64,000 nucleotides of DNA from Girardia tigrina. Taxonomy: Eukaryota. A program made the translations under genes and the position numbers. The stretch's first letter is position 1; each line of letters begins with the position of its first letter. Below the pieces are notes generated by a model, which saw nothing but the letters and a program-made list of their open reading frames with translations, had not been told where the DNA came from and did not search any database. The DNA lies in contig MQRK01203012.1 of NCBI GenBank assembly GCA_001938485.1, positions 1 to 64,000 of the forward strand, read 5' to 3'. Below, piece by piece: positions 4,610-63,126 of this stretch.

Positions 4610-5150
4610 AAAAGGTTCCTTCGGGTTTTCATATGCAGGTGATCTACATAGATATTTCTCAAATAAATCAAAAACTCCTTCGGGTGTCCAAGCTAAACTA
4701 GTTTATCAATTTAAATGTCGCAAGTGTGAATCCATGTACATTGGAAAAACAAATCGTCATCTCCGTACTAGAATAGCTGAACACACCAAATTGAGTAGGA
4801 ATATCTCGATTCTAGATCACATTAGAGAAATAGAGATAAAGTTAACTATAAAACTGAATTTACAGTTTTGAAGAAAAATTTTGACACATATCATGAGAGG
4901 ATAGTCACTGAGACATTATTAATAAAGCATTTAAAACTATGCTGAAATGTTCAAAGTGAAATATCCAATCATATTAAAATCTTTTAATATTAAAAAAAGA
5001 TTATTTGTGTAATAGTCAATGTACCACATAAATGACTTGTAATTTGAAAATTACTTCACAACTGATGATGCCGTTATGGCGAAACATGTTTTGCAAAATA
5101 AAAAACTTTTAAAATAGAGTTTTTTTTATTTTATTTATAAATAAATTGCC
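4610..5150 (+). mobile_element. Penelope-like element 3' fragment (GIY-YIG endonuclease + pLTR)
   Basis: LVYQFKCRKCESMYIGKTNRHLRTRIAEH, followed by a hammerhead motif and then a (TA)n tract. Confidence 0.88.
5057..5093 (+). ncRNA. Minimal type-I hammerhead ribozyme
   Basis: caa-CTGATGA-t-GCCG tta TGGC-GAAA-CATG-T-T-ttg; intact core with a palindromic stem-III loop. Confidence 0.8.
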
Positions 5151-5655
5151 ATTATATATATATATATATATATATCTGTGTTCATGGAATTTAGAAACCT
5201 ATTTTGAAGGTCTTTTACTCAATCAATTTTCTCCAAACTTTGCATACTTACTCCTTTTCGTTGACAATAAATGATTATGTAAATATTTGATCGAAAAAAA
5301 CTTTTTAAGATCCCGAAATGGAAAAAAACGGAAAATTCGGAGTTCCCAAACAATATTAATTACAAGATACCTACTTATAAATTAGAAGTAGTTTATATTA
5401 ATTTTTATTGTTTTTTTAATAAAAATTTTAAAAACTTTGTTGGCAAAGCAGAGTTCTGTCTGCATAAAGAATGGATATAAAAAATTTAATTTTTTTGATT
5501 TACTAGTATTTCAATTACACTTACATAGAAGAGGAGAAATGTATTACTTCTTATCGAAGATTTTATAGGAATTTTAAAATGTATAACAGAAATGTTTTTT
5601 AAAAAATTTTCAAAAAAATTATTAAGTTAACATAAAATAATTATAAAATATATAC

Positions 5656-7906
5656 TAAATTAGTGATTTGGTAAGCAGCCGTTCTCCAACAGTCTCTTTC
5701 TATTTCCAGTTGCGACACAGTTTTCTCTAATCTCTGTCTCTGCTGCTCGTACAGGGAATGATATTCCCGCAATAAGTCAGCATTGGTTTTGGTTTCCTCT
5801 ACGGCTTCTTTTAACTAATTAACAACAATTTAAATATTCCAAAATAAAACAATCTAATAAAATTAATTATTAAAATTTTTTTAAAAATTGTATTTATTAT
5901 TATTATCATAAATAATAATAATAAATAATAATAAATTAATTTAATATTTTTAACATCAAATTTATTTTCTTTTTAAAGTACTCATAAAATAAAAATACAA
6001 CAAAAATACACTAAACATTGAAAAGCAGGAAATAAACAAAAAAAGTAAAGTTGAAACAAACCATTCCAAATGACATTTAAATATTAATGCAATATTAATT
6101 AACTTCAAAAATATAATTCTAAAAAAAGATTTTCCGAATTTCATAAAACATTACTTTTTATTCTGAAACACGCAATAAAATTCCCAGAAGAAAAGTAAAT
6201 TTATATTTAAAGCATGAAAATATAAAAATAACTTTTTAACCATAATTTTCGTTTTATAATTTTTTACTTTTATAATTTATCATTTATTAAATGCAAAAAT
6301 AATTGTTTATTTATTATTTTCTTTTTAGTTATCATTTTAAAAATAGAAATGAAATTAAAGTTTATTATATAAAAAATATTATTTATAAAAGATAACAACA
6401 TAATCATAAATAGAAAGTAACAAATTAAAAATGTACAGAAATTAAATTAAAAATAATCAAGATGAATTGAATTATAAATAAATATAAATAATACATTTTT
6501 ATTTTTAATATTATATACTTCATTTGATAATTTTTTAATAATTTTCTGATTAACAAAAACACTTTTCCGTATATTCTTTTCAGAAAATATAACAAAAAAA
6601 CTATTTTTTTCTGAATTATAATAATCTTTTGCTGTTTGTTTCATATTACCATATGATTAAGGATTGATAATTATATAAATAACTTATTTATATACATATT
6701 TTAAAGTATTGGTGCGACAGAAATTTTGTTCTTTTGTAAATTATTTAATTAAAAGGTTACTAAAAAAATTTTTCTTTAATTACAAATACTGAAAAATATA
6801 AAAATCTTATTCGATACAAAAAACAAAACTAAATAAAATAATAAGTGTTACGAAAATTGAGTAAAATACAAAGTGTCCGGAATTTAAATTTCAGTTTTAT
6901 TATTTATAGTTTTGAGGAATATTTTTGAATGGTATTTATCGTTTGTTGTTAGGTATGTTGTTTTAGGATTGTGTTTCTCCCACCCAGATGGAAGATTGAT
7001 ATCTTAAATATTTTAAAACGTTGAGTTGTTTAATCAGTTATTAAAAGTTAAATAATCACTTTAAAATTAAACTAATATTTCATAAATAATATTTTAAATA
7101 TAATTTCTTAAAATAAATAAAAATTATTTTAAATTTTAATTATAAATAATTTTTGTAATAATTAAATTATAATTTAAAGTATAAATTATTTTGGTAATGA
7201 TTAAATTGTATTTTAAACTTGTTTGAATAATAAGGCGTTAAAGAATATTATTAAAGATTATCAATCAAGAACGATGACGAGCTACGCAAGTTTTAAGGAG
7301 AATTGTTGTAGTGACAATTCAAATTGTGATAATAATAAATGTAAAGGAAACTCCATTAATGTTCTTAATAATAGTATTATCTAGGTATATTTAGTTTTTT
7401 TTTTGTATTGAAAATAAAAAAAATCAAATTTGTTCGATTGGAATATTTGTTAGTCAAAAATATAGATATTCGTACAATCAAATAAATCACCAAGTTAAGG
7501 TTGAAATTGTTAATTTCAGATTGAAATTATAATAATAAAAATCGTCAATTCAAAACACTCAAAATATTCCTAAAAAGTGAATTAGTGATTTAAAAATTCA
7601 CCTGACTGATGAAACTCACTCTGATTGGTTGACCAATCAGAGAAAGCCAATCGACTCATTCAAAATCACTGCTCACTACAACTAGCACACACAATCACGG
7701 TATACCATCCTAACAATCGTTAAAAATAACAAAAACAATATAACCTAATATGAGATTTCTTTGTTCGGGTTTATCTCAATCAATTATTTAAATTATTAGT
7801 ATTTTTAGATGTAAATATTTTTAATAGTAATTTAATTTTTAATCATTCTATACTGTTTTTTATAAACATACACAAAGGCAAACAATAAATTTGTGATATA
7901 CAGTTC

Positions 7907-7946
<40 letters not shown>

Positions 7947-7996
7947 NNNNNNNNNNNNNNNNNNNNNNNNNNNNNNNNNNNNNNNNNNNNNNNNNN

Positions 7997-8032
<36 letters not shown>

Positions 8033-11000
8033 AAAGTTCAACTCAAAGTACTGGTTGGTTTATTAAAAAATTTTAATTATTATGACCCAATTAAACATTC
8101 TCTCAAATGAGTATTAATTTTAATTATTCAATTATTTCATTTACAGAAACAAATTAATTTAATTCCCGAAAAAATTAAGTTTCAACTTTTTATAACAGCA
8201 AATCTAAAAATATTTTTGTATTCCATCGTTAAGAGAATTCCTTATTGATTTTAAAGTATTTCAATTTTATTTAATAAATATAATTTAGAAAAATTATACT
8301 TATAGATCTTCTAAATATGAGTAATTAGTTTTTAAATTATTATATAATTCAATTTTAGAACCTTCCAATAATCTCTCTTTTTTGTAAACTCCACAGACGA
8401 AAGATGGAGATGAAAATTCAGCGAGTAAATTAGTAAAATTGGATTAAATTCTCTTCGACAATACAATGAATACAGAAATATTAGAAATTTTGACAATAAA
8501 TTTGCAGTAATATTATTATTATTATTAATATTTTTGTCATTTAAAGCTTTATTAAATTTAGAAATAAAATGATACAGTTAGAGACAATTTTTATTCATGA
8601 AAGAAAATGAATAAATTATTGATGAAAAGGATGGAAATATAAATTAAAGATATTAACACAGAATTAAAGGATTAGATGGAGATTATAAATTTGTCAGATG
8701 TAACTTGACAGAGTAACTAGGATATTTAGGAATTCTGTCACGTATGACACCCGACGAAACAAGATAAGATTTGTGAATTATGATAAGAAATATGATTGTT
8801 TCATATTTGTTTACCGTTGGGTCTATATATATTACAGATATGTGTATATATATAGGGCCTCAGTATTTAAAGAATTATTAATCGATTAATGATTAATTTA
8901 TAATACCACTGAGGAGGTATTTAAATTAGTTCGCTGATCAAAATTTAAAGGGGTTTAAAAATTATTTTGAACTTTGTTCGCAAATTTTTATTCTCGATTT
9001 TTCAGTCACGTTTCCAAAATTGATTTATCGGTTCCGTATATGTGTTGGTGCGTCAGTCGTATTGGGGAGAGAGAAAGTCATTGTGTGCTGATTGAGTTGT
9101 TAAATTTTAATTTTACTATTTCAATTTATTTTGTATACAAATTTTATTTACAATTAAATCCCGATAGATGGTGATTTTGTTTGTTCACACTGAGGATTTT
9201 TTCTTGAAAATTATTGTAAAAAATAATATTAATATGCTTATTCGTAAACGATTAATGTGATTATTTAAAGAAATATTGATTAAGATTTTCATATCGGAGA
9301 ACAACAAAATAAATTTTTATATTATCAATTTAAGATACTTATTTTATGATATAATGTTCCATATAAAAATACAACATTTGTGTTGACGTTGTAAGGCATC
9401 CTAAGCAAATTTATCGTGACACCATATGCCATAAGTATCTAACAACATGTAAAAAGAATATTTATATAAATAATTAATAAAATCAGAGAATAAAGAATGC
9501 GATTTGATTAATCTTTTATTAGAAAACAAAACATGATCTCAATTGTAGTATCTACATTTTTGTGTAAATGTTTGGGACTTGAAAAATCGTTTAATGAAAA
9601 GTGTTACTTCGGGTTTTAACTGGCAGATGATTTTTGTAAAAAGTGAACTGACGAAATATTTATCTAATAAATTGAAAATTCCATTATGTGTTCAAGCTAA
9701 TCTAGTATATCAATTTAAATTCATAGGTGAATCAAATCGTCATCTCTGACCTAGAATTGCTGAACATATGCAGTGGAGAAGAAATAGTTCGATTCCTCAT
9801 TACATTGAAAAATGCTAAAATAATGATACAGTTAGCTATGAAAATGAATTTTCAGTCTTGAATAAAAATTTTGATATATATTTTTAGAGGATGGTCACTG
9901 AAGAGATACATTAATTTCATCAACTTATTTTTTTTATCAAAATTTTCTCATCAAAATTTTTTCATGGAAGTTTTTTGTTGATTTTTTTGTTGTTTTTTTT
10001 AATATTTTTTGTTAATATTTTTCATCGTAATATGTTTTATCACAAATTACTTTCAGCAAAATTAATTTCAATAAAATAGTTTTCAATAATTTTTTTTGAT
10101 CGAAATCTATGAGATATTTTTTTTCAATTTAATTTTTATAAATGGAGAAAAAATATAAAGAATTTCACAAATATTTTTTACAAAGTATTTGAAATTTTGA
10201 AAATAGTTTTGTAATTTTTAAAGCAATATATTTCGGCAGAATATCCGTCATCATCAGACAGTAATAAAACAATTTTTTAATGGCGTCTTAATTTTTAAAA
10301 AGCATTTATTTTTTAAATTTACCAGTATTAAATTATTTTCATTAAGAATTTAAAAATATATGTAACAAAAAAGTAATAAACATTAAAAAAATTTTATCGG
10401 TTTTTATATTTGTAAAAATGTTTACTAGATAGTAACTTATTAATTATGTTGAAAATAAATATGATTTTTTTCAGTCCAAATATTTCAATAAATAAAATCA
10501 CTATTAATAAAAAATATGAATAATAAGAAAAATTTAACCTTTCAATGGAGAATAAAAATAAAGTATTATTTAGATTAAAGAGAATTGAAAATAAATAATT
10601 TTAAATTATTTTGATGAAGTTTTAAAATTTTTTTCAAAAAATTTCTTAAAATTAATTAAGAAAAAGTTTAGTTTAAAATATACAAATCATGAAAAGATAT
10701 ATACATTTGTATGTTAATTGAAATTCATATGAATAAATTTACATACATGGAAAAATATATTAGAAATCATTTATTGAAAATACATTAACATAGAAAACTT
10801 TATAAATTCAAAAAACAAAACCTTAGGTTTAATAACATATTTAATACAAGTCCGAATAAGAAATATTTCTTATGACAATTCTGAGACCACTTTGAATCAT
10901 TCTTCTTAATTATGCAATTAATTATTTTGTAACTGGAATTTGAACTTAGTGCTTAAAATACTGCATCATTGCGAGATATTCTGAACTCATTGTAAATGTT

Positions 11001-11397
11001 GTGGTCCTTTTTTACATTGATAAATTTCCTTATATATAAATGGTATGCTGCTAGAGTTTCATTTAATCGTTTATGCCAACCGATGATGGAATTATTGGTA
11101 ATAGCAAGATCATCGTTGATAGCCTAAAATACATTTCACAAAGAAATTTTAAATAAAAGATAAAAAAATTAAATAAAATTCATTTCGACGAAAGAAATAT
11201 CTAAGAATGCACTTTGGACTTTCTTAAAACCATGCTTAAATATCCAAATCTAATCATATTAATTTCTTTTATTGATAAATTGCGTAATATTCAATGTGGC
11301 GTATAAATGACTAGTAATCTGAAATTAATACACAACTGAATATGCCGTAATGACGAAAAATGTTTTATTTTCTAATAAAAATTATTAAAATAGCGTC

Positions 11398-11438
<41 letters not shown>

Positions 11439-14400
11439 TAAATACTAAATAATTTTCTGGTTTATACTTTAATTTTTATAACATTTTTAAACAAGCCAGT
11501 TACATTTAAAATGATTTTTATTTAAATAAGTAATGTAATTTATTTTAAAATCTGAATCTATTTTAAAATGAATCAAAATACATTAATCCTTTGTATTTGT
11601 TTCTTAAGAAGCATCAGTTCACCGTATTATTTCCCTGAAAGGTCGTCTTAAGCCCATGATTAGATTAGTTGGTAAAGCATCATTTCATTTGATTAAGTAA
11701 AATCAAAAATAAGATGTATATCATATAATAATTGCTTGAATGCATTTTAAACAATAATTTTATACTAAATAAACAATCACTGAGTAAAAAACGTTTATGC
11801 CTTATGTTATAATAATTCTTGTTTTCGCGATTTGTGTGTATTCATACATTTTCCATAATTTTTTACATCAAAAGAGTAATTAGTATAATCACAATCAAAG
11901 TAAATGTTGGATATCAAAACTTCAAACTGCTAGATCCACTCCAAACCTAAATTGATTCCAAAAGAATAATATGATATCCATTTGATAGAAATTTGACGAA
12001 ATCTGCATTTTAAACTTATTAAAAACACCAATGTACTTTCAATATTTTTATTTGTATTACAAGTTCAATTGTCCTCAGAAAAATCTTTTCAAAGGTTTTG
12101 TACATTTGCATCCTTCTAATTAATTATTGATTTTAATTCTATTACCTGAGTAAATTGAGATTACATAGTTCTTTAAAATATTTACTACAGTCAATCTCTA
12201 TTTAACGAACGTCTATTTAACGAAAACTATATTTAACAAAGGATTTTTCCTGTACCAACGAAGAATTTTAGCTTTAATTTTACCTCTTTATTTACCTCTT
12301 TAGTCTGCATTTAACGAAGTATTTTTTGGTCCCTTCCACTTCGTTATATAGAGGTTCCACTGTACAAATTTTATTGGATAAAAATTAAAATAAAGATAAT
12401 TATTTAAAAAAATATTAATTTAAATTACTTATTTAAAAATTGTAAATCAAATAATTCAAATTATTTAAAATTTTAAAATTATTTTAAATTAGAAATAAAT
12501 TTAAACATGACATATTTTCAGATAATAGAAATAAATTTAAACATGACATATTTTCAGATAATAGGAATTAAAATATTAATCATCTATCTGGGTAGGAGAG
12601 ACACAATCCCAAATCAACATACACATTCAAACACGAAACATTCTAAATATTTATCATAAAAATTGTTTTGAATTGTCGTACAATTCAACATGGAACTTTA
12701 CAGTTAGTAAACCTGATAGAGTTTACTAGTTGAAAAGTATTCTAGACATGTTCGATGAACATAAAAAAGTACAATGAATATTGTTCATCGAAAACGTGCT
12801 TTTTTCAAAAGTTACATGCGAGATTACATACATTTAACCAGCAACATGATTAACAAATCAAACATATAGCCCAAATGTTGATCCATCTGATAATGATCAC
12901 CACCAAACAATGCAACACTTATGTTATATCCCCGATTTAAGTCATTTAATGAAGTTGAAAAAGTCTGTCTAAGATTTTTGATTCAAAGATCTGCCAATGG
13001 TTGGTTTACGAGAATGAGACTGATTGCATTTAGTGCATTTTTCTTAATTTTAAGGAAAAGTGAAATAAAGTTATTTTCATCCAATAATTTATTAGATAAA
13101 TTAAATTTATTTTCGGCAAGCTACCATANNNNNNNNNNNNNNNNNNNNNNNNNNNNNNNNNNNNNNNNNNNNNNNNNNNNNNNNNNNNNNNNNNNNNNNN
13201 NNNNNNNNNNNNNNNNNNNNNNNNNNNNNNNNNNNNNNNNNNNNNNNNATATATATATATATATATATATATACAAATGTTCTAGAAAATTTAAGAGCTT
13301 AACAAGAATAACTTACATGATGAGTGAAAAGTCTATAAATATTACAATACCTGAAACTCAAATTTAAACAAAGAATTTTGTATTTCTACTACATCCAAAA
13401 TTTGATGCTAAGCACGAATATGATAGTCATTTTCATCTTATACGTCCCGATTATTGGTAAATTGAAAAAAATAATAACAATATATTTTTATATTTAAAAC
13501 AACGTTCGATCTTTACACGATAAACCCAAGATAATAAATTAAAACAATAAAAAATTAAATAATAATCAAATGATTATTTTTTTTAATATTGAATTGTTTT
13601 TGAATCGAATAATGGCACATAAAGATAAATTAAATTTAGACAGCATTATTGCCTATCTCTTGGAAGTTCGTGCATCACGACCGAAGAAAAATGTTCAATT
13701 GACCGAAAAGGAATCGCGGGATTTAAAAATAAAAAATTCAACCGGATTGTTTATGGAAGAGCTATTGAAGATCAAATTGATATACGTTGATTATAAATCA
13801 AAAGGAATTGAAATTGTGGAAAATATGAATGTCGGCGAAGCGACAATTGAGGGGAAAACGAAACAATACCGGATTTTGACGTTTTGTGCTTGATTGTGTC
13901 CAAAGGCAAAATGACCGACGGTGACTGTGTGAAGAGTTACTTAATGGAAGGCGAAGCGGCGATTAGTACGAAAACGGCGACTCAAATTTTCGAATTATTG
14001 TTTTTGGTGGTATCAAGTCATTTTATTAAGCAACATTACGAAACTAATTTTATTGCTAAAAAATTCAATATGATTTCAATTGAGTGGGTCACGAGAAGGA
14101 TCGCTACAGGATCTTTTTTAAAGAGAAATATCGGTGTTCCGGTGGGTTATAAATTTTGTCCGGTTAAACAAGCAATGTTTTTCAAAAATGACACCAATCA
14201 CGATTCACAAATAGTTGCTGCTGAACTGAATTTCAGGCCAAAGCAACGGATTATAACAAAGAAAGATGTTCGAGTTATGTCAGAAATGACAATCGCGATT
14301 TTTGAAAATTTAGAAAAATTTTGGAGAAGTTTAAATTGTCAATTAATCGATATAAAAATTGAATGAGACGTTGATGATTTCCTTCGATTACTTGATGTTC

Positions 14401-17400
14401 GATGCAATTCTTTGGATTCACGAACGTTAGTTGTTTATTTTTCCCCTCGATCCCAAGCCTGTCTCCTAACACCGGAATGTCGCGGCCACACAACCGCTGA
14501 ACCCGCTCTGCATTACAATCGAAGCCATTGGCCAGAGCGCTTAAGGAATGACAAATGTACAACATGTGGCTCCCGTACGACCGGAAAAAGTAATGTTACT
14601 TCATTTGCATGTTAAGCTTGCCATTTTCAAAATTTTCTTCAAAGTTTTGGATTCAGAGGGAGAGCTAATGAAAACACTAAAGAATATTTTCCCGCGATTA
14701 TCAGCAACCAAAATAAAAAAAGGCGTTTTTTTCAGCCAGATACCAAAAAATTAATGAAAAGTCAGTAATTTTAAGATGTATTATCCCAGTGTAATTGCGT
14801 GCCTGCAATGTTATTAAAAAGTGTGTGTGTAGAACTTTCTTTTTATTTTTCCATACTTTCATCTCTTGATCAACATACATACAAAATGAATAAATCGTAT
14901 TGGCTATATATTTTTATTTTTGTCTCAGGTAAACATCGATCTCTTGATTATCAAGATATAGCTTCAAAATGTTGAATGCATTTAAATAGATGAAGGTGAT
15001 TATGTCTCCGAAAATTCACTTTCTAAAAAGTCATATTGACTTTTTCCCATCTGAGACAGATGAGCATGGTTAACGATTTCAACAGGCCCTTTCAACACTG
15101 GAATATCGATATCAAGGAAAAGCAGATCCTAGAAGGATGGCTAACTATTGTTAGATGATTTGCAGTTCCTAAAATATGAATTTTTTTGTCAAAAGTGCTG
15201 CCTTACCGTTTTGCGACTTCGGGTTTTCGCATATTTTTAAAGAAAATAAAACATAAGATAACAAAATATCTGGACGTGTAGAAGAAAAAGTGACTTTCAT
15301 ATTCGTCTTCAGCTTCAAATTCTGGATATAATAAACGTAAAGACTTCTTTGTCTAAAATAAAAAGTTCAAATTTGTTATTTGAAAAATGCATAACTAGAA
15401 AGCAGAAGCAAAGTTAAAGATAAAAAATCAAGAAAAAAACAAAAAAATACATAAAATAAAATATTTTACTCGAATAAAAATAAAATTGATAAAAATAAAA
15501 TCAAAAAGAAACAAAAAAAATACTGAAAGTTATCCAAGAGTATGTGATGAAAAATATATCCAAAATTATTTAGAGATAATGTAAAATAGGGAGAATAATA
15601 AAAAATGTTACGAGACATTATTATTAATAAGACATCGCGTCGGAATTTGTTGAGAAAAGTATAAATCAATAGACAATATAGGCATATGTACACCTTAGTG
15701 TCATAGATGATAGAGAATAAAAAGATAATATATTATTCATTTTACAAACGGGTCCGGATAACTCGATTTCGGATAACTCAATCATTTAGTTAACTCGATT
15801 TATTGTGGTTGTCCTGACTGAGGACCAGACATTTACGTAGTCGTAACACCGGATAAACTACTTTACTCGATATAATCAATGAAAAGTATGAGCATTTGAG
15901 AGACCATTATTAATTTTGTTTAAAAAGACATTATGGGATAAAAATAATAATGAAACATTCTACTTATTTAAAGATTTTAAGAATTGAAATGATCTCACTT
16001 CGCTTTTTGAAATGTTACTTAATTGATTGTAAAATTTTATTAATAATGATTCACAGAACTATTGCTTGATTTGTAAACCAAAGTAATTCTGTAAAAAGGA
16101 AAACATTCTTTGATTAAGAACCTTAATCGATCGCCTCGATTGGGAATGCTCACATATTTTGGTTTTGAAATAACGAAGAACTGATTCGGTTGGTAAACAA
16201 TTATAGCTGAATATGATAAATCGACGTGCTAGGAATGAAATGTTTCAGATTTTAAATGATTGTAAATTATAGATTTAAAAAACGTTTTACTGATAATTAG
16301 AAAAAATAGTAAACAGCTCCCTTAAGAGCCCAAAATCATTATTATGAGATTATTTTAAACGTTCAAATGAGTGCATTTCCTATACTAGATAGTGAGGAAC
16401 CCAAAACAATTTTATATATTCATATTTTTTCTTTCAAGTAAGAATTTCTCGCTCATAACTCCCAATGGTTAGTCACTCATAAATTTTTAATAAATTTTGA
16501 AAAATTTTCCTATATGGTAATCATTCATCCGTGATATCATCTTCTATCAAAATAAAAAAGAGCGGAATGAATACTCTTAATACTCTTGTATTGACTAGAA
16601 AAATATCTATTATTATAATTTTATAAATTGATCATACATTATTAATGAATCAAACAAAACGTCTCTGTTTTTATTTATACTTTGTTTTATAATAATTTTT
16701 TTATTCTGTTGACATTTTTCTAAGATTAAACACTGTCATCTCTCGACGGATAAGATGATATGAAGGATAAACAGAATTTCTCCAATCACAAACTCCTACC
16801 TAATCCAAAGTGATAAGATAATATTTATTTGTTTTAATGAAATACAAATATTTTTAATTAATAATAATTGATTCACTTAATATATTAACTCATTTTGCTA
16901 AAAAAAACATTATAAATCATTTATATTTTCTCATTAATAATAATAATACTAATAATATAAATATATAGTTATGAGTTGGTTATTCGAACAATAAATACAT
17001 AGAAAATAAATATATAAAATCAATAATAAATAAAGCAATAAAACAAAAAAAATCGTTTGAAAATTAAACAAAGATTTATTTGTTGAATATTATTTCATAA
17101 TTTTTTTGCAAAATTTTTAGTTTATATATTAAAATTTTACAAAATATGTTTTGCTTTGCAATTTCACTAAATTTCCATATAAATATTTCAGATATTTAAA
17201 TTTTATAAAGACAATATTCTCTTTAAATACAAAAAGTATTTTTTAAAGAGCCAAGTCATGCCTTTTTGTCACAATTTTGCGTTCAAGGACGCAAACCAAG
17301 TTCATAATGCAATATTCTTTGATCTAATCATTTACGACATAAGAACGTGCGATTTTGAGTTTGAAATGTCAAAATCATACTTTACAACATGTCTTCTGTG

Positions 17401-24091: not shown

Positions 24092-24124
<33 letters not shown>

Positions 24125-27100: not shown

Positions 27101-28692
27101 ATAGTAATTTTTTCAAATAAATCATTATAGAGATATTTAAAAAATGATGAAAAATTAATTTTAAAAGTTAAAAAACGTTCGTCATAATTTATTGTAATTA
27201 ATTTCTGCTGAACAATTGTCTTCCTCAGACTAAACTAACAATAATATAGTCATATTTATACTTAAGTATATCAGTAAAATGTTTATGTAATCATTGCGTA
27301 ATTTATAAATCATGAAAATACTTTCAATAAAGTTGAAGAGGATGGTGTTTGTTTTAAAATTTATGTTCACAATTTAATAATTACAAAAATCATTATATAT
27401 TTGTTTGATTTTTTTCGGTAATAAATTACGCTAACACAGTTTGAAATTCATATAATTTTTTGTTTGAAATTAGAGTGTCAGAGTTCTGTAATTTGTTTTG
27501 AAATTTTAAACGTTTTATAGTGTTTTCTATGAAGGACAGTGAAATTATTTCCATTGGAAAATGTACCCAGGTTGAAATGTTGCATGATGAAGGCTTTTAA
27601 TCAAATCAATCTTTCGGTTCAAGGGATAAATTTAATTATGAGAGTAAATTTTTCATTTTGAGAAAAGTTTTGAACGCATAAAATGAAAGAATATTAACTG
27701 AGGTATTATTAATAAGAATTTTAAACATAATTTAAACATCTCAAGTGATAAATCTAATCATATTACAATAATTTAAAATCGATAAACTGATTAAAAGTAA
27801 ATGTTAGTGCGAGAGTGGGTGCAGCGCGGTCGCGGCCATAATGCTCTAGTGATGGGGATGTGGCGACGCTGAAACGAGGGTATGGAGAATGAAAAAGAAT
27901 GTAACCCATTCGATCAACAATCATAATCATTTTGCTCGCCGCTTTTACGAACATCCTTTTCTCATCTTCAAATGTGAAAAACGTCAGCAGTCCCGGCCGA
28001 AAACAATCCAAACTAACTTGGTCGTGCGCCACGTCCATAGACTACTTGAGCCAGTCTGGTACCATACCTGTGATTGGGCAAACAATCGGCGGCCGTTCAC
28101 ACCGCCCATTACTATTATACCACTCGATTATTTTATCGCAGCAAATCGGCAATCTCTTGTTGGGATTCAAGACCACACAGAACAATCCCGAATAATCATA
28201 TGTCAAATTGATAGTTTTATTTATAAAAATTTCAGACTTTTCACAATTTTCACTCACACAGAGAGCCCCAGTATCACTGGAGATTACCAAATCAATTTTC
28301 ACTGAATTATTTTGGTTACCAGAATCATTAATGTTCTGAGAATCTTCAGAACATGCCAAATTATCATTGAATTCATTCATTGAATTATTTTAGTTATGAC
28401 AATTATTAATGCTTTCAAAAAAAATCCTTGTTATGGATGGTGGACGAAATTATAATGATCGTATTTTCCATTAACGAATTGAAATATCTATTTTTTTCTT
28501 TTCGAATGAATTTTATCATGCAATGAAGCAATCAAATCAGAAAGACATTCAATCACGTATTACTATTTTTATTGTTATTTAAAATTGATCAACGTTTTTC
28601 ATTTACAACTGATTTAATTGATTCGGTATAACACATGGAATCAAATCGAATTAAATTTTTTTACATACATTAAAATTCTTTTTTTTACAATT

Positions 28693-28740
<48 letters not shown>

Positions 28741-31700
28741 TGGTAAATGTACAAACTTCGTAAAACTCGTATATGTAATATAATATTAATTATTATAGAT
28801 ATGTGTATTCACAGTACGAAAACATAAAACTCTCAGCATTTAGGTAACTTACGAGAGTAAATACTGAAAATTCCTTATATAAACACCTCAAGAATTCGAT
28901 CTTGAAATTAACAAATAACATTTTAAATTTCATAATTATATCTCAATCATTTAAAGTTGAGAATATGTATTGCAATAAATCACATACTCCTTTAGGTTTG
29001 TGTTCGGACATTGTTTATCAATACACATGAAATGGGTGCAATGCCAAATACATCGGAGATACTGCTCGTCATCTCTGCAAACAAGTCCAATAACACAGTG
29101 AAAAAGGGGGAAAGAGTAATATTGCTGAGTATAAAAAAACGTGTAAATGTAATATGAGCATAAATGATTTTAAGATTTTGTGGAAGCATTTTAAAAATTA
29201 TTGGAGAGTGTCAAGTGAAGCATTGTTGATAAGATCATGTGATATAAAAATCGATTTTCAAACAGCATTCTCAACTAATTTGTTAAGACTTTTCGATTAG
29301 ACTTACGTAAGTGATTACATAATCATTAATTTCTTAAAAAGAACATAATCAGTGATTTGATGGTGACGCTTAAACCGTCGAAATATATTATCATAAAATA
29401 TTTTTTTAAGTAATAATAGTTGCATTTTTAGATTAAGATTATAACAATTCAATTACATTTCATAAAAAAGCCAAGTAAAAAAGATAATATAAATGTAAGA
29501 ACCCCTTTAAATCATTTTGGAAAAATCAAATTCAAACTTACATTATCGGGAGAAATATCTTGTGATCTTTATGAGCTGAAGGCTTCGTCGTGAATATTCT
29601 AGGGTACAAAATATATGAATCTAACATTAAAGAAGATATACTCATCATAAAACTGTATGGATTGAGATCCATGATGAACTGATAAAGTGAACTCTGATGG
29701 GAATAAATTTTCAGTAACTTTAACTGTCTGGTTAAGAAAAAACAATGGTTATATTAATTGATTATCAAAATAGCTATCAAAATCATTATTATTTTTTCTC
29801 GACAATTTATAAAAACTTATAGGGGACGCAAAAAACTGCATTTTAGAAGAATAAAATTTGATTTTGAATATGATGGATAATATATTCATTTTCGTACTTG
29901 ATTTGTGCTATAAAAATTGATTTTGATTACACATTTGATTTATTTATTTTATAATATATTTATTTGTATTGATGTTGTTTTTTAATGGTGTTCTTCACTT
30001 TCTATACTTAGTGTAAATATGAAACATATCGCGGTAAACATGAAATTTTTCATTGCAACCTTACGAAAGAGTGATTGTAAAGCTATAGAAATATATTCCC
30101 TGTTAGTTGCTGATAATGAATCAAGAACCTTTTCTATCATTTATTGCATGGTTAGATCATTGCTAACACTGGGTATAATTGATGACTAGTCTTATTCCAT
30201 ATTAGCAATTCAATATTTCAATTTAGTAAGTTATAAACATTGTTATGTCAAAAGTTTCTAAAATTTCTGATTTATACTTTTATTCATAAAGACGTTCCAT
30301 TTTACCCTTCACTTAAGTCTCGGTCTTTATTCGCATTGATTTATTATTTGTCTTAAGGCTTAAAAGATAGAACTAACGTCAATTTACAAACTTTTCTAAA
30401 ACATTTTCATCAGATTTGCTTTTGATACGACAGAAATGTAGTGAAAAAACTTTTTTTCTCCGTTTTTCTAGGCTTTTTATAGTCTTAAAACATAGTTGAT
30501 ACACCAGTACATCATTTTGCAAAATTTTATTTTAAAACATTTCGTACTACAAAAGAATTCACTCAAAGTTAAGAGACAAATTAAGCTTGTTGTGATAAAA
30601 AAATCCATCTAGACGTGAAGCAAATTATGCTATAAATTATGCAATAGGTAGAATTATAATTTATTAAGATACTGCATAAGGTATACCAAGACTGCTCAAC
30701 CTGCAAGCTTGGTTTTAGTCCAGAAGCCTATTATTTACCCTTTTGCGTAAATATTAGAACACGGTTAGACGTTTTAGGATATGAATAAAATAATCATTTG
30801 AGATGAAACGTGTTTTATCAATTTTCTTTGAGACTCATTTTTTAGAAGGTGAAAAACCCACAGATATGAACGACATAAAGTGATGACAAGATGAAATTTT
30901 GAAAATGTACTTTATATCAAGCTAATGGGTCTTTCTTTATTCCAACAGGTTACACTGTCTCTCTTGGAATTTTGATGGAATGGATGTTAATGACAATCAT
31001 TATTTTGTTATCACTTTCTCCTAAGAACGGAGAAGCATACAGCCCTTCCAAAAATTATGAAATAGTTCCAGTCCATACAGCTACTAACTTTACCTGGATA
31101 TTATCCTAACCTCTTACCAACAGAGAATTTTGATTTTGTCCTTTAAGAGTTCCTTCCACCCAGCCAAACAATAAACAAAAAGTCTTACTTGCGTGTTTAG
31201 CGTTGTTTGTGTGTAGTTTTGCAAGAATAGGCCAGAACTAAGAAAAGAAAATATTTGTTTTGCTTCACAATACCTTCTTACACTGCACTATTTCGGGTAA
31301 AAAAATGACCCCTTTCGTTTAACAACCCCCATATTCACCTGGTTTAGCATCGTAGAAGTTTTAGGTATTCACAATGTTCATAAGACCACTGCAGGGAAAT
31401 TATTTTGAGAAAATTGAAGTAATTCAACATGCATCGATTCGCGCTCTGAAAACTATTGTGGCTAGGATTTATGTTGATTTAAGTATTTCGGGTCGTTATG
31501 GGATTACTTAAATGGCAACAAAATAGATTTTTTAAATAAATAACAATTAGTATAACTTTCTCGAAACAGAATATTTGAAAAATTCGAATTACAATCAAGA
31601 AACAGCATTGATTAAAGAAAATATTTTCGATAAACACTCAAATCAGAAATAAAAACCGTTTTATCATCGAATTTTTTCTTTCTCGATTTGACTTGTTCGA

Positions 31701-43103: not shown

Positions 43104-43164
<61 letters not shown>

Positions 43165-43432
43165 GTTCTGTGAACATTTGATTAACACTATTGATAAATA
43201 ACTGTGTTATCATTAGGACGTCTCACCTTCTTTGAACTTGTATGGGTGAAGAATGAAATCATTTTTGATTTTCATTCTAATTGATTATAGATTGATTCCC
43301 CGTTTTATGAGCAGTTTTGCTAATTGATAATTTTTGCGTTCACAGAGGTTTTTACTCTCCATTTTCTTGAAATATAACTAAATGATTTAATTGATTTAAA
43401 AATAAATTCTCGTATTTTTTAAGACGTTCAAA

Positions 43433-44532
43433 ATGAACAAAATTCATCTTCGACATTGCATGCTTTTCATGTATAATTTTGGAAAAAACACCACCGAAAC
43501 ATTTAATCAAATTACGCAAGCCTATGGAGCTGATACTGTTTCATATGCCACGGTCAAGAACTGGTTCAAGAAGTTCAGAAATGGTGAGTACGACCTAGAG
43601 GACAAGCAGAGAAGCGGAAGACCCAAAGAAACTGAAGATTCGGAATTGGAGGCGTTGCTTCAAGAGGATTCAACCCTGGTGACAAGAGATATGGCTAAGA
43701 TCCTCTAAATCGATCAATCAACGGTGCAACAAAGACTTACGGCAATGGGAAAAGTTTTGCAATTTGGACATTGGGTTCCGCACCAGTTATCACATGCAAA
43801 TATTGCCCAAAGACTAAATTTGTGCGTTGCAGTTCTTTGACGTCACCGCCGTAAATTGTTTTTGGGGAGAATTGTCACCGGGGACGAAAAATGGGTGTAT
43901 TTACGAAAACCTACAGCGTAAAAGATCATGGGTAGATGCGGTTCAACCTTCAACTTCAACGCCAAAACCTTATCTTCATAGCAAGAAATTGTTGCTCTGC
44001 ATATGATGGGACATGAAGAGAGTCCTCTATAATGAGTTACTTAAACCTGGAGAAACAATCACGACACAGCGCTACATTGGACATTTGTTGAAACTGAGCG
44101 AAAAAATCAAAGAATTGCGGCCGCAACATGGACATTCGATGAAAAACATTATCCTACTCCACGATAACGCTACACCACATTTTGCGAAAGCGACGAAAAA
44201 TAAAATTTTGGAACTGGGATGGGAGGTTTACCGCATCTGGCATATTCTCCGAACATTGTTAAATCCGTTTTTTTATTTGTTTCCCTCTCTACAACATACT
44301 CTGGCTGGTAAGCGATTCAAACATGAAAGTGATGTGCGAAATTGCATCGATGAATTCATAGCATCGAAACCAGAAAAAATTTTCAGCGATGGAATTAGAA
44401 AATTACCGGAAAGATGGTAAAAAGTAATTGATTGTAACGGCGAATACTTCCCCGATTATTATTTTGTAGTTTCTTTAGAAATTCTTTGATAAAAGTATTA
44501 AAAATAGGCTAAAAACTTATGCATCAACCTAA
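43433..44532 (+). mobile_element. mariner (DD34D) transposon, full coding length, stops and frameshifts
   Basis: MNKIHLRHCMLF, WVPHQL, IVTGDEKWV, LLHDNATPH, GIRKLPERW; right TIR AAAAACTTATGCATCAACCTAA+TA; left TIR not visible. Confidence 0.92.
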
Positions 44533-46984: not shown

Positions 46985-47339
46985 AGAGTCTCTGCCTGCT
47001 CTGTCAACATGCCGTCGAACAATGTCTTTAATGTTATTCACATACATTGAGTCAATCAGCACATATCTGCAAACCAGCATCCCGCTTCTTCTGTAGAATT
47101 TCCATTAAAAGGCCTCAGTTTCTTGTTGATCACATCGGTTGATGCTTTCAGAAGTTCCAATTTCGATACTGATTTGATGATTTTCACTCCGTTTCGTGGA
47201 AGTTCTTCTTGTTTGGCGTGGTCACCAGTTAAAATATTCGACTCTATTAAGACAATTCAAAATTCATTTATATAAATAAACTTGAAAAAAGATGGCAATT
47301 TTTTATTATAAACAAATAAACGCCATTTAAAAATATATT

Positions 47340-48001
47340 TTAGGATAATATATTTCGACGGTTTAACCTTCATCATCAGATCACGGATTATGTTCTTTTT
47401 TATTGCTTTTGTATAAGAAATGAATGATTATGTAATCACTTATGTAAGTCTAATCGAAAACTCTTAACAAATTACTTTGAGAGTGCTGTTTGAACATTGA
47501 TTTTTGTATCACATGATCTCATCAACAATGCTTCACATGACACTCTCTCCCAATAATTTTTAAATGCTTGCACAAAATTTTAAAATCATTTATGCTCATA
47601 TTACATTTACACGTTTTTTTATGCTCAGCAATTTTACTCTTTCCCCCTTTTTGACTGTATTCTTGGACTCGTTTGCAGAGATGACGGACAGTCTCTCCGA
47701 TAAATGTGGCATTGCACCCATTACATGTGTATTGATAAACAATGTCCGAACACAATCCTAAAGGAGTATGTGATTTATTGCAAAACATATTCTCAACTTT
47801 AAATGATTGAGAAATAATTTTTAAATTTAAAATGCTATTTGTTGATTTCAAGATCGAATTATTGAGGTGTTTAAAACCCTTGGAGTAAGGTAAGCTTAGA
47901 GTATACTCAGGTGTAAAGCAGTTTTCAATGTTTAAACTATTAATTTTATTTTCAACAATATCCTTGTTGTCTGCAATCGCTACTTGAGATATTCCAGCCA
48001 T
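47340..48001 (-). mobile_element. Penelope-like element 3' part (GIY-YIG) with hammerhead at 47344-47384
   Basis: SDIVYQYTCNGCNATFIGETVRHLCKRVQEY..IAEHKKTC; reverse complement gat-CTGATGA-t-GAAGG ttaaa CCGTC-GAAA-TATA-T-T-atc. Confidence 0.9.
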
Positions 48002-54399: not shown

Positions 54400-54861
54400 T
54401 TTATTAATTTCGACGGTTAAACCGTCATCGTCAGAACAAATGATTTTTCAAACGAAATTTATTTATATATTGCAGTTAATGATTACGCAATCAATACGTA
54501 ATCAGTGCATCATTTAAAAACTTTCAACAAAGTTGTAGAGAGTGCAGTTTTAACGTTAATTTTAGGATCCAAAGATCTTATATATAACGCTTCACATGTC
54601 CCTCTCTCCAAATAATTTTTAAATTGAGTGTACAGAATTTTAAAGTGTTGTGAAGTTATATCGCCTTTACAATGCCTCATATGTCCTGGACATGTCAAAA
54701 ATTAACTTTCAAACTGCACTCTCTACAACTTTGTTGAGAGTTTTTAAATGATGCACTGATTACGTATTGATTGCATAATCATTAACTGCACTATATAGGT
54801 AAATTTCGTTTGAAAAATCATTTGTTCTGACGATGACGGCTAAACCGTCGAAATTAATAAA
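54400..54861. mobile_element. Fold-back PLE unit: ~150-bp inverted arms (54400-54550 / 54711-54861), each with a hammerhead
   Basis: Arms are near-identical inverted repeats. The spacer and left arm encode the GIY-YIG tail ERGTCEALYIRSLDPKINV on the minus strand. CTGACGA-t-GACGG..CCGTC-GAAA-TTAA-T-A occurs on both strands. Confidence 0.92.
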
Positions 54862-55691
54862 TATTTTCAATTGGCTTTCGAATTTTGATTTTAATAATCT
54901 GCCAATTTTTTTCAATTTATTCACAATTTCATATTCTGTGAGGGAAATTTCATTATTTAACAAACTAAATTCGAAATTATAATTTAAATTTGTGTCTCTT
55001 TAAGTTTTTAATAATTAGATTAAATTTTGTTCGTGATGATTGCAATTTTTAGCAATCTGACTTTTCTCCTTATGAAAATGTGTTAGCTTTCGAAGACAAG
55101 ACTACTTAGTAATATAATATAATTGTTGATGCAATTATTTACAAAGGTACAATGTTCCGTAATATATATTATACATAAGTAACATGGTTTAAAAATTTTA
55201 AAGTAATGTAAACTGTAATACAAAAGAATAAATTCAAAACAGGCTTTAACAAATAAGTTTTAAAAAAAAGTAGTGAAAGATAAAATAAATAAAACATCAA
55301 ATTACTCTTACAAAATACTTATATTGTTACAAAGATTGCCCCCGGAAATTATAAATATATTCAGCGAATGTATGAAATAATTTCCCGTAATTTGGTGAGT
55401 GAAGTGTCCTTTTCAGCCGAATGAGCTTTGACGTAAAAACAAGTCTTACGTACAAGTATTTCTTCTGCTTGATTCTAAATTTTCTAATACAATTTCTTTA
55501 TAGCAATAATTAAAATTTATCAAAGAAATATTTTTTCTACTCGTTATACGCTTAAATATATTTCAATTACGGGATCATTATACTAAAAATGTGGTCAGTT
55601 GGTTGATATGTCTTGATCAACTCGCAATTATATCAATCGATCAATAATTGATATTAATTTAAAAAAAAATTGTGATTCGAAAATAGTAATA

Positions 55692-58850: not shown

Positions 58851-59039
58851 CCGATTTTATCATTAACATAAATAAATATTAATTTTTATAAATCTTTGTC
58901 TTTTGATCAACTGTTAAATTTGATGTATTATACTTATAATTGTTGTTAAAATAATTTGATTATTATTTTTTATCATTATTATTTTTATATTTTATCTAAA
59001 TAACTGTTTTGAAGTTCACTTCATTGTAGTATTTCGTTT

Positions 59040-60348: not shown

Positions 60349-61039
60349 ACTTAAAACTCTTGTAAAGATTTTAAAATTCTAAAAATTTTAAAAATTGATA
60401 CATATAACGTATGGTCGCGTTGCGATTCTATTTTGACTCATTTTTGAACCCATTTGTTAAAAAATAAAAATCAAATTAATATTTTAAATAATTCAATTAA
60501 AATAATTAATTAAGGTAAATTAAAATAAAATTAAATAATTAAAATAAATAAAAGTAAAATTAAATCATTTAAATTAATTAAATTAAATAAAATATATAAG
60601 TATATATAAATAAGTGAATATGAAATCATCACGTTCATATGGTTTAGTGATGATGTATATAGTTAAATCAGTTATGACTTCGTTTCATTGTCATTATTCA
60701 AAAAGTCTTTCATGCAATTCGTTAATCAATTAATGTTATTTTTCAATTTCTCAAAATCGTTATTTTCCTTTGGATGGTGATTACTAATTTTCAATTAGTA
60801 GTGAAATGTATTTTAACTAAATTTAATAATTAAAAAAATTATAAGTCCTTAAATGTAATAAAATAAGTGTTCTATTTATCCAAAATTTTCGGTTCGGTAA
60901 ATCCTCTCTCCTCGATTTTATCAAATCTCTTACGAATTGCCGATATACAATCCTTTACTAAAAATTTTACTCCAAAATGTTTGTCTCAAAATCCAGCTTT
61001 CCATCCAGCCAATCTAATAGTCTTGCCATCCAATCAAAC

Positions 61040-61275
61040 ACAAACTACGCGAACTTTCAGTGAAACTCGGATCATCAGTCCAAAAAGATTTCCGTCAGTT
61101 AGAAAAAGACAGAATAATCAACCGATATCCCTCCCCATGTGCCTCAGCTCTTTATATCGTTGAAAACATGACATATCATGCCTCGCTCACGGAGATTATC
61201 GAGCATTAAATGTATTAACAATGTACAATTCCTATCCCATGCCAGTATTCACTGATATTTTTCATCGTCTCACTG
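61040..61275 (+). mobile_element. Gypsy RT N-terminal remnant
   Basis: IINRYPSPCASALYIV and GDYRALNVLTMYNSYPMP. Confidence 0.75.
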
Positions 61276-62551
61276 ATCACTGTTGGGTTATGAAGGTGAT
61301 TTATTCTATTTCGTTAAAAAAAATAGACGATTTCTTTAAAATATATATTTTTTATGAATAACTTTTACAATCTTTTTATATTTCAATTAAGAAATAAAAC
61401 TTTAACGCTTATGCACAGATATGTTAGGTAAAATGTGGGATACTTGATATCCGCACATAATTTTATTTTAAATATATAATTTTATATAGTTTTTGGTATA
61501 TAAAAATATAACGTTCATATTCTAGTACTTTATAAGATTTTTACCAAGACTTAATATTAGAAAATTGTTGATTCTTGTCGATTTTTGTGATTCCTTTTAT
61601 ATATATTTTGGAATCAATTACTTCGGGTAATTGGTCTCTCAAATAAATTTATCTGATAATTACCCCTCTTGTACTTTAATAATAATTCTTATTTTTCTTG
61701 GACATATTTATCTCATATCTTATTTTTTATACATATTTCTTCTTTTCAGATTAAGTCTCTTTTTAGCCTTCTTTTGTATTTCTTTTAAAATAAAATCTTT
61801 TGTGCCCGCTGTGGTATAAACTTCTTTCATTTATATCTTTCTTTTTAAATATAACTTATCTTTATTTATTAATTTGTTTTATTGTTTACGTTTTTACTGA
61901 AATTTTTATTCTTTCATATAAAATTTAATGTTATTTTTACTGTTCCAAAAATTTATTAATTATAAATATACCTAATTATTTAGTAATAATTATATTTTAT
62001 TTGCAATCAAAACTCGTTTACTTAGAGGAAAAAATTGCAAGATTTCGAGAAAAATATCAAAATTATTTTAACAAAATACCTCAAATTGACAGCAGATTTC
62101 ATTATTAACATTTCACAACGAATTTTCTATGTTTATATATAAAACATTAATCGGTAATTTCCGATTTTTGTTTCAAGGATGTCAGTTTTAGCTGATAAAA
62201 ATTTCGCAATTGTATTTATCCTGAATTTTTTTAAAGAATTTAAAGACAAAATTTGTAGACAAAATCTTGATGAATATATAATGATACCACATTAATTTCA
62301 TATTCAACTGAATTTTAATTAATATTTATAATTAAAATGATATTTACAATAAAAAATCTATTATTTATCAATAAATCAAGCACTTTATTTATTTATATTT
62401 TCAATATATATAGTTGCATACAATGTATATAATGTAAACAAAATGTATTTTTATCATAACGTAACACTTTAAATCTTGTGATTCTAAATATTTTTTAAAA
62501 AATGTTAATTATTATTTTTTAAAATTAACAAATCAATTAAAATTTTCATTA

Positions 62552-63126
62552 TTGTTTATTAATTTCGACCGATTAACCGTTATCTTCAGAACAACTGATT
62601 AAAAAAAGAAATGTACTTATATACTGACGGTAATGATTATGCAATTGATACATCATCAATAAATCATTAAAAAACCCTCAATAAAGTTGTCGACAGGACA
62701 TTTTGAATGTTAATTTTAAGACCCAAAGATCTTACATATAACGCATTACATGTCACTCTCCCAATAATTCTTAAATTGTGTGCACAGAATTTGAAAGCTA
62801 TGGGTATTTATACAATTTTTTTACCAAATCTTTCCCTTTTTTCTATATCCACCATTATTACTTCCACCTTCATTACGACTGTGTTCCTGGATTCTCTTAC
62901 AGAGATGACGTTAAGTCTCTCCAATGTATGTGGCATTACACCCATTACATGTTTATGAGATCCGAACAATTCTAAAATCAATATTCAAAATGCTATCTCA
63001 ACAACTTTATTGAGAGTTTTTAAATGACATATTAATTGAATACTGTTTTCCGATAATATATAAGCAAATTATTTTTTTAATCATTTGTTCTGAAGATTAC
63101 GGTTAATCAGTCGAAATTAATAAACA
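62552..63126. mobile_element. Second fold-back PLE unit with hammerheads at 62552-62594 (-) and 63084-63126 (+)
   Basis: Inverted arms ~62552-62720 / 62973-63126 around a minus-strand GIY-YIG fragment (CNGCNATYIGET*RHLCKRIQEH); CTGAAGA...GAAA-TTAA-T-A with stem I TTGTT/AACAA. Confidence 0.88.

Follow-up and report, generated by a model that had tools for sequence, protein, structure and literature searches.

Minimal hammerhead motifs with a palindromic stem III at the ends of decayed Penelope-like elements in Girardia tigrina

Why do the small hammerhead motifs scattered over a 64,000-nucleotide stretch of Girardia tigrina DNA (the window) carry palindromic loops, and does it matter which palindrome each one carries? 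The original prediction placed nine minimal hammerheads here, and all nine are present at its coordinates, which denote the start of stem I for plus-strand motifs and the low coordinate for minus-strand motifs. Counted from the first core base, they lie at 5062(+), 10257(-), 11336(+), 29357(+), 47379(-), 54434(-), 54827(+), 62589(-), and 63090(+). The four nucleotides 3' of GAAA read CATG at 5062, AATG at 11336, TATA at 10257, 29357, and 47379, and TTAA at the last four, so that eight of the nine are palindromic as claimed and AATG is the exception. These letters had been called a 4-nt loop; the reading of the letters was correct, but the positions are actually 15.2, L3.1, L3.2, and 16.2, and with A15.1 and U16.1 the palindrome is 6 nt long. 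The extra U after A9 is found in 9/9 motifs, between positions 9 and 10.1, and the cleavage triplets are GUU, AUU, and AUA as foreseen. We rejected these non-GUC triplets as a special feature: their first base is set by the palindrome, and GUC is the commonest triplet in relatives.

The nine motifs exceed chance. A strict descriptor gives three matches in the window, where 60 dinucleotide shuffles average 0.07, and a relaxed descriptor gives five, all palindromic, against 0.08 in shuffles, none palindromic. An Rfam search of the window returned no hammerhead family match up to E 10, and self-comparison revealed no 150-450 nt tandem repeats; a canonical type I hammerhead or non-LTR retrozyme was rejected on these grounds. 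A tenth, decayed motif, absent from the original prediction, lies at 27228(-) (24.5 bits, E 0.0085). The nine motifs represent seven insertions, with 54434/54827 and 62589/63090 forming the arms of two inverted ones, and trace back to no more than three or four independent lineages; at the window GC content of 27%, TATA and TTAA are frequent 4-mers.

How intact are these copies? The core CUGANGA ... GAAA ... UH is kept in seven of the nine, being broken in 11336 and 29357 (C3U and A9G in the latter). The G10.1-C11.1 pair closing stem II is likewise present in seven; 62589 and 63090 have lost G10.1 plus a second stem II pair, and 47379 and 10257 each have a single stem II mismatch. Core and stem II are both preserved in 5062, 54434, and 54827 alone, and breaking changes occur in 6/9 motifs: the copy at 11331 (core 11336) that had been singled out as decayed is indeed so, but five others are too. 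The stem I pairings described earlier (CAA/TTG, GTGAT/ATCAT, TTGTT/AACAA) are perfect in 5062 (3 bp), 29357, and 62589, but not in the others; in 10257 and 54434 the bases 3' of the cut site are target DNA rather than stem I. Minimum-free-energy folding of 14 motifs returned the hammerhead or double-hammerhead fold as such in 0/14. The core is non-canonical, and we therefore used helix energies alone.

The motifs are embedded in fragments of Penelope-like elements (PLEs). The one intact family A hammerhead (5057..5095, plus strand; stem I 3 bp, stem II 3-4 bp, CATG, GUU, H17 = 5090) scores 50.0 bits with a model whose own training set includes it. It sits in a 5'-truncated copy (4590..5150, plus strand) consisting of a broken GIY-YIG end (Pfam GIY-YIG, E 1e-4; tblastn 72% to P0004), a pseudo-LTR with the hammerhead, a tail of ~60 nt, and then (TA)n. 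A short family-A-related end at 11224..11395(+) (blastn 70% to 4931-5171) holds the decayed hammerhead 11331-11369 (G8U, a stem II mismatch, AATG; 23.2 bits). Family B is represented by two ends with GIY-YIG remnants: 28878..29409(+) (tblastn 60% to P0001), with the decayed hammerhead 29352-29394 (C3U, A9G, TATA, AUU), and 47275..47946(-), with the hammerhead 47384-47342 (TATA, AUU), whose stem II mismatch at 47369 is private, and a tail. Family C forms two head-to-head inverted insertions. The first, at 54403..54904, is flanked by an 8-bp direct repeat and carries TTAA and AUA; its 54434(-) arm stops at the cut site (H17 = 54402), and its 54827(+) arm has a full tail. The second, at 62485..63196, has hammerheads 62589(-) and 63090(+), both tailed and both without G10.1. 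At 10226..10288 lies a 63-nt inverted mini-insertion in which a minus-strand core (10257-10226, TATA) stops at U16.1/H17 and joins a plus-strand PLE-like tail via stem I; it is flanked by a 14/16-nt direct repeat and shows no endonuclease remnant. The tenth motif lies behind an ORF-end remnant of the B/C group at 27191..27330(-) (core 27228, extra A, TTAA, AUU, stem II broken). Three further remnants were found. A GIY-YIG remnant at 9579..9908(+) (tblastn E 2e-21 to P0004) is cut off ahead of the hammerhead, with no hammerhead model match downstream, and a hammerhead was looked for and not found at an old endonuclease end at 15990..16175(-) (tblastn E 1.5e-7 to P0008) or at a family-A-like ORF end at 27622..27779(+) (blastn 72% to 4832-4990).

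In families A, B, and C the GIY-YIG remnants stop 60-80 nt 5' of the hammerhead core. The motif lies in a pseudo-LTR behind a GIY-YIG ORF end in 8/9 cases, with weak evidence for 11336 and the two short inverted arms; the exception, 10257, has only a tail-like piece. The C-terminal GIY-YIG endonuclease carries the CxxC and H residues of Penelope/Poseidon EN+ PLEs, and inverted 5'-truncated arms with an optional tail are observed, as expected of such elements. Reverse transcriptase (RT) is missing from the truncated window copies and present upstream in the same ORF in the nearest relatives, P0001 and L001. Absence of a zinc-finger linker between RT and endonuclease separates Penelope/Poseidon from Neptune and Nematis (PMC8557442); the linker pattern occurs in 1/102 relatives with the endonuclease motif, and P0001 is not that one. 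Judged by linker pattern and GIY-YIG sequence, the host elements are assigned to the endonuclease-bearing PLEs of Penelope/Poseidon type. All PLE material in the window consists of dead end pieces, 5'-truncated or inverted. Self-comparison detected no direct tandem of two motifs in the window, only dispersed or inverted copies, and hence none able to dimerize in cis here. Relatives preserve more: L001 has an open 744-codon RT plus GIY-YIG frame with the motif (TATA, AUU) 75 nt behind the stop, and L052 has a tandem layout of hammerhead, 753-codon frame, and next pseudo-LTR. In family B, the first ATG, a candidate start codon, lies 20 nt behind the cut site.

Is the structure under selection? 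Among 80 loci fetched via the endonuclease, a search permitting either 0 or 1 extra base picked up 38 motifs downstream, with the extra base in 38/38, and a loop-blind descriptor found 44, of which 42 have a 2-, 4-, or 6-nt palindrome, one is a wobble variant, and one is a non-palindrome. Eighteen family representatives were hand-chosen from 4-nt-loop families, leaving aside families with 2 or 6 nt and six window copies that have decayed. They have 94% of cells paired versus 66% when shuffled; both loop pairs are paired in 18/18, with 5 and 7 double changes, and 52 model-aligned copies give the same covariation picture. C3-G8 has changed to U3-A8 in 3/18 representatives, and every catalytic position, as well as NUH, is conserved between families that share 31-60% endonuclease identity. 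CATG is retained throughout a 30-row clade, and the 4-mer changes eight times on a 37-row endonuclease tree. In 200,000 shuffles of 17 family loops, none left all of them palindromic, and relatives include the GC-rich palindromes CGCG, CTAG, and TGCA. Stems and palindrome thus covary across families, and the selection on structure proposed for at least three PLE subfamilies is borne out by compensatory changes between families that keep both. This selection operated on ancestors that were still active; the copies now in the window are decaying. Viral and prokaryotic contigs scanned for motif and endonuclease gave no matches. Further scans yielded eight loci: seven proved unrelated in blastn and tblastn comparisons, and the eighth (L085) is a relative-family copy with a decayed loop and an ordinary tail. 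A recurrent antisense UUGAUGA ... GAAA in relatives, ~200 nt 5' of the endonuclease, falls within coding sequence and was dismissed as a chance match.

Very probably, then, the window motifs are minimal type I hammerheads of PLE pseudo-LTRs whose active ancestors dimerized via the palindrome, while the loop drifted without a code. PLE minimal hammerhead dimers cleave with low activity (PMC4209133), and by analogy families A, B, and C would have behaved as dimer-cleaving hammerheads. An active tandem element would produce an RNA with two pseudo-LTRs. Because a lone motif cannot close stem III, two copies would pair through the 6-nt palindrome and swap stem I strands to form a double hammerhead, probably assisted by the element's own protein; protein-assisted cleavage of a PLE hammerhead has been reported (PMC11167929). 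Each core would then cut after its NUH triplet, just 5' of the tail or ORF start. Selection would maintain loop self-complementarity plus pairing in stems I and II, and the identity of the palindrome would shift rarely, through compensatory drift.

Sequencing runs were compared with family B. Contigs of runs X1 and X2, which come from one study and are not independent, have a depth within the element several hundred times that outside it, a ratio that is not a copy number. In X1, 95% of the depth restores the stem II pair missing from copy 47379. No variant falls in the loop among the 40 listed (74 more are unlisted). Cut-site ends are absent among the 21 listed of 1425 loose ends and the 15 listed of 142 joints; such ends therefore make up a minor class at most. 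Coverage of the motif came from contigs and from no raw RNA reads. In RNA run X8 a single contig crosses it, contigs showing neither strand nor cleavage, and the match in X21 is limited to a 40-nt piece.

Do the insertions themselves record cleavage? Two window insertions with target-site duplications (10257, 54434) stop where cleavage is predicted, and cut-site junctions also occur in the relative copies L026 and L030. We tentatively suggest, as a possibility with the odds against it, that hammerhead cleavage in vivo has left its record in inverted PLE insertions and that some reverse-transcribed templates are cleavage products. The element protein would nick both target strands and then reverse-transcribe two templates. 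The 5' product would yield an arm ending at H17 (10257, 54434, L026), the 3' product a short arm starting at nucleotide 1.1 (L030; the tail of 10226-10288), and the 63-nt insertion at 10226 would represent the two products together, copied in head-to-head orientation. If true, genome-wide junction counts would read out a ribozyme activity that RNA sequencing has not revealed. The in vivo role of PLE hammerheads, described as unclear in PMC8557442, is what this lead bears on, and genome assemblies alone suffice to test it. Our literature search found no paper on PLE junctions at the cut site; the idea may still be in print.

Could cleavage instead be irrelevant to transposition, with the motif retained for a structural or protein-binding role as a signal close to reverse-transcription starts? 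Most copies extend 33-45 or 59-75 nt beyond the cut site, and their templates were therefore uncleaved RNA. In the PLE studied in vitro, insertion did not require cleavage: catalytic mutants inserted normally, and RNA reads with an end at the cut site were absent (PMC11167929). Prolific PLE clades without hammerheads also exist (PMC8557442). A signal of this kind nevertheless has to accommodate the conservation of catalytic positions and NUH, the C3-G8/U3-A8 double change, and the few junctions that coincide with the cut site, and we regard it as very improbable.

Does loop identity act as a code? The original prediction held that it might be a subfamily-specific dimerization code; under such a code, loop identity would be selected so that each subfamily's RNA avoids pairing with others. 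Cross-dimers of A, B, and C are predicted at -0.9 to -5.3 kcal/mol, 10-15 weaker than self-dimers (-14.5 to -16.9 kcal/mol); the 10257 energies were discarded, its stem I 3' strand being target DNA. The palindrome is preserved at every family-level loop change, L002 and L003, of different families but with one contig-name prefix, carry CATG and CGCG, and close sister pairs have unlike loops (A/L003, B/C, L013/L036), which fits a code as well as drift. But loops are common to distinct subfamilies. TATA occurs in family B and the 10257 copy, TTAA in family C and the 27228 copy, and CATG in 8 of ~21 relative families, three of them (L015, L060, L028; 57-61% endonuclease identity) in one metagenome assembly, which may contain more than one host. 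The predicted L015 x L060 cross-pair (-18.8 kcal/mol) matches the self-pairs (-18.3 and -19.7). Stem I, also intermolecular in the double hammerhead, contributes 4.5-9.6 kcal/mol of discrimination by helix energies versus 3.5-5.9 for the loop. The natural partner sits in cis, moreover, and only 16 Watson-Crick 4-mers are possible. A code would bear on the way in which retroelements sharing a host escape cross-processing, but the evidence here speaks against it, and we consider it very unlikely; under drift, cross-family incompatibility, where present, would be a by-product of joint stem I and loop divergence. A literature search for hammerhead heterodimers or a pairing code found no paper, and the idea may still be in print. 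Finally, chance matches or plain inheritance of unselected structure in AT-rich DNA, which the few lineages, the commonness of AT-rich loops, and the 6/9 broken copies might suggest, are refuted by the shuffle control, the relatives' motifs with their GC-rich palindromes, the pairing statistics, and the loop shuffles.

The window motifs are real, mostly decayed copies of an already described class of PLE end-repeat hammerhead. Cervera and de la Pena (2014, PMC4209133) had already published the additional base behind A9, the palindrome in stem III, the existence of covarying families, and paired copies on opposite strands. With those metazoan minimal hammerheads the window motifs share type I topology, a short stem I, a single additional base separating 9 from 10.1, G10.1-C11.1, the palindromic 15.2-16.2 pair plus loop 3, multiple covarying consensus families in each genome, a predominance of solo copies from truncated PLEs, opposite-strand pairs 100-700 bp apart, and the dimer model. 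They differ in host and sequence, in a stem II of 3-6 bp versus 7-8 bp in the schistosome families, and in the AT-only loops TATA and TTAA; cross-family pairing and cut-site-ending insertions are not discussed in the portions of that text available. New here are further families and the covariation check, with the palindrome conserved and not its identity; as the class is known, their value is modest. Small PLE hammerhead variants (Lunse, Weinberg and Breaker, RNA Biol 14:1499, as summarized in PMC6765202) likewise have a palindromic, very short stem III and cleave as dimers. With Penelope/Poseidon EN+ PLEs (Craig et al. 2021, PMC8557442; Frangieh et al. 2024, PMC11167929) the shared features are a C-terminal GIY-YIG (joined to RT in the relatives P0001 and L001), pseudo-LTRs, the lack of a zinc-finger linker (in P0001), adjacent inverted 5'-truncated copies, AT-rich targets, and two preferred 3' ends ~30 nt apart (the tail). 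The window is without any RT sequence. The ORF of the anole element begins within stem II, unlike the family B ATG behind the cut site. Non-LTR retrozymes (PMC7229834; bioRxiv 10.64898/2026.07.22.740005) share the type I motif, dimer activity, and a proposed PLE origin, and those of amphibians also a weak palindromic helix III. Retrozymes, however, form 150-450-nt tandem repeats without coding remnants, whereas the window motifs sit in dispersed solo or inverted PLE ends that retain remnants of the endonuclease.

All nine hammerhead motifs claimed for the window are present in a sequence that is AT-rich (27% GC) and crowded with decayed mariner, LTR-element and other transposon remnants. Grouped by layout (stem I 5' strand, core, extra base, stem II, GAAA, a four-base loop, UH, stem I 3' strand) and named by the first core base, they fall into three Penelope-like element (PLE) subfamilies, A (5062, 11336), B (29357, 47379) and C (54434, 54827, 62589, 63090), and a lone type, 10257. 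A strict descriptor finds three motifs in the window versus 0.07 in 60 local dinucleotide shuffles, and a relaxed one five versus 0.08. All nine are within the ten best matches of a covariance model trained on 18 representatives, including four from the window. The model also detects a tenth, decayed hammerhead missed by the original prediction, 27228(-) (24.5 bits; remnant 27191-27330, minus strand), which has a TTAA loop and lies behind a B/C-type ORF end to which its upstream sequence aligns. Decay had been thought confined to the 11336 copy (listed as 11331); core and stem II are both preserved only in 5062, 54434 and 54827.

In families A, B and C, tblastn places ORF ends 60-80 nt upstream of the cores, and Pfam identifies a GIY-YIG remnant upstream of 5062. 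ORF-end remnants without a motif lie at 9579-9908 and 15990-16175 (tblastn) and at 27622-27779 (blastn); no RT was found by tblastn anywhere in the window. The nearest whole relative protein, P0001, combines an RT with a C-terminal GIY-YIG and lacks the zinc-finger linker, which points to Penelope/Poseidon by the linker criterion in the available text of PMC8557442 rather than by a tree of named references. The same text confines EN-positive PLEs to animals, one transfer excepted, which points to an animal as host. An animal-type PLE end on a contig binned with a bacterial genome (L085), ~90% identical to that of metagenome locus L026, is probably host contamination. Because 54434/54827 and 62589/63090 form two head-to-head inverted insertions, the nine motifs represent seven insertions, none in direct tandem arrangement. 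Family B is plentiful, with 16,561 contigs from sequencing run X1 aligning to it, and the stem II pair lost in 47379 is restored in 95% of the depth at 47369. Loose ends at 47361 (55 contigs in X1, 43 in X2) belong to another subfamily, whose stem II loop is different, as is the 5' strand of its stem I, and which shares the 3' side of family B. One contig of run X8, a leaf-litter metatranscriptome, is a 97% match to family B over 672 nt (window 47275-47946) and a candidate transcript.

Other remnants surround these copies. A Mos1-like mariner occupies 43406-44420 (+), a Tc1/mariner-like frame with masked stretches was recognized by eye at 1774-2673 (-), and LTR-element pieces (zinc knuckle, RT-like, integrase) lie at 3255-3542, about 4160-4500 and 37700-38008 (+); the family A PLE piece directly follows LTR-element pol sequence. 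At 13543-14366 (+), a SAICAR synthetase piece comes immediately after a protein-phosphatase N-terminal piece, both intronless and possibly captured or processed gene fragments.

Is the structure itself maintained? An alignment of 12 endonuclease ends identified 158 related loci in metagenomes, and the best 80 served as the sample of relatives. All 38 motifs downstream of an endonuclease carry one extra base under a descriptor permitting zero or one. A loop-blind descriptor yields 44 motifs (~21 families, grouped by stem II), 42 of them palindromic (2, 4 or 6 nt), with one wobble variant and one non-palindrome; an all-palindromic outcome never arose in 200,000 shuffles of 17 family loops, which do not keep relatedness. 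A set of 18 author-chosen representatives covers 4-nt-loop families, without those of 2 and 6 nt and without six decayed window copies. In this set 94% of alignment cells are paired versus 66% in shuffles, and both loop pairs are intact in every row, with 5 and 7 double changes. C3-G8 becomes U3-A8 in three of the 18. Fifty-two model-aligned copies concur, in an alignment biased toward the model. Of the 41 rows in an endonuclease tree, 37 have a 4-nt insert; among these the 4-mer switches eight times, once through a mutation confined to a single copy, and a 30-row clade keeps CATG throughout. The palindrome counts, pairing and double changes therefore uphold, for active lineages, the proposal that structure is under selection across subfamilies. 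The U3-A8 core variant occurs in the endonuclease-linked hammerheads of L013, L036 and L037; the start of L013 repeats its own end, resembling a collapsed tandem unit. Loop length varies in steps of two with self-complementarity retained, from 2-nt palindromes (L057, L059, L041 541(+), L044 3970(-)) to 6-nt ones (L065 1193(+), L080 4093(+)).

How might these motifs cleave? From the topology in the available text of PMC4209133, we infer that each core of a double hammerhead joins the 5' part of one copy to the UH and stem I 3' strand of the other; stem I is thus also intermolecular. Most likely, the two pseudo-LTR (end-repeat) motifs of one tandem transcript would pair in this way and cut weakly, aided by the element's own protein. 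In that source monomers are inactive and dimers weakly active; the portions of the review PMC6765202 consulted also treat dimer cleavage, and those of PMC3088659 already give palindromic stem III as compatible with dimers. The available text of PMC11167929 describes cleavage only in the presence of protein, insertion in vitro without need of cleavage, and no RNA reads ending at the cut site. Being solo or inverted and mostly broken, the window copies are probably inert. Their non-GUC triplets, once singled out, are unremarkable: the palindrome fixes the first base, and GUC is commonest in relatives. NUH triplets cleave in general.

Does cleavage leave a trace in the genome? The ends of most relative copies fall 33-45 or 59-75 nt past the predicted cut site (after H17), and both clusters match the two reverse-transcription starts plus tail of the element in the PMC11167929 text. 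Direct repeats of 14/16 nt, equalled by 8 of 1500 local random pairs, flank the 63-nt insertion that makes up the 10257 copy (10226-10288). Its minus arm terminates at U16.1/H17; its plus arm begins at the stem I 3' strand and is putatively a PLE tail, sharing a terminal motif with the tails of B and L001. The insertion 54403-54904 has an 8-bp repeat (15 of 1500 pairs equal it) and a long arm ending at -1..+2, as does that of L026 4106(+). At L030 1-67(-), the inverted arm begins at nucleotide 1.1, the first base behind the cut site; it is the sole one of 53 within-contig tail matches without a preceding core. Both arms of 62485-63196 carry tails. Outside the two clusters, 1/8 ends in relatives and 2 of ~5 in the window fall on the cut site, a pattern observed post hoc and drawn from motif-based discovery, which is biased to ends at or behind the core. 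Contigs aligned to family B gave no cut-site pile-up among the matches listed. That such arms reflect hammerhead cleavage in vivo is a tentative and rather doubtful reading; the same ends could come from endonuclease nicks at ATT or from microhomology in an AT-rich spot.

Very improbable is the original prediction that loop identity acts as a subfamily-specific dimerization code. Predicted helix energies for self-pairs are -15.9 (A), -16.9 (B, from the perfect stem I of 29357, possibly not the family consensus) and -14.5 kcal/mol (C), versus -3.3, -0.9 and -5.3 for cross-pairs, so these families would not cross-pair; stem I contributes a predicted 4.5-9.6 and the loop 3.5-5.9 kcal/mol of the difference. 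Loops also differ between L002 and L003 and within three sister pairs on the endonuclease tree. However, CATG is common to L015, L060 and L028, three families at 57-61% endonuclease identity in one assembly (which may hold several hosts), and the L015 x L060 cross-pair is predicted at -18.8 versus -18.3 and -19.7 for the self-pairs, an alternative copy (L039) being weaker throughout. In the window, TATA is common to family B and 10257, and TTAA to family C and 27228. Moreover, the natural pairing partner lies in cis, as in L052, where a 753-codon frame separates a motif from the next pseudo-LTR.

A literature search, with supplements and Lunse et al. outside its scope, found no published account of cross-family pairing or of junctions at the cut site. 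Inverted arms and tails of PLEs are described in the PMC8557442 text. The structural features in the original prediction are all already published in the available text of PMC4209133, whose opposite-strand pairs 100-700 bp apart recur in the predicted list, and whose hammerheads share with the window copies the extra base, G10.1-C11.1, the palindrome and covarying families.
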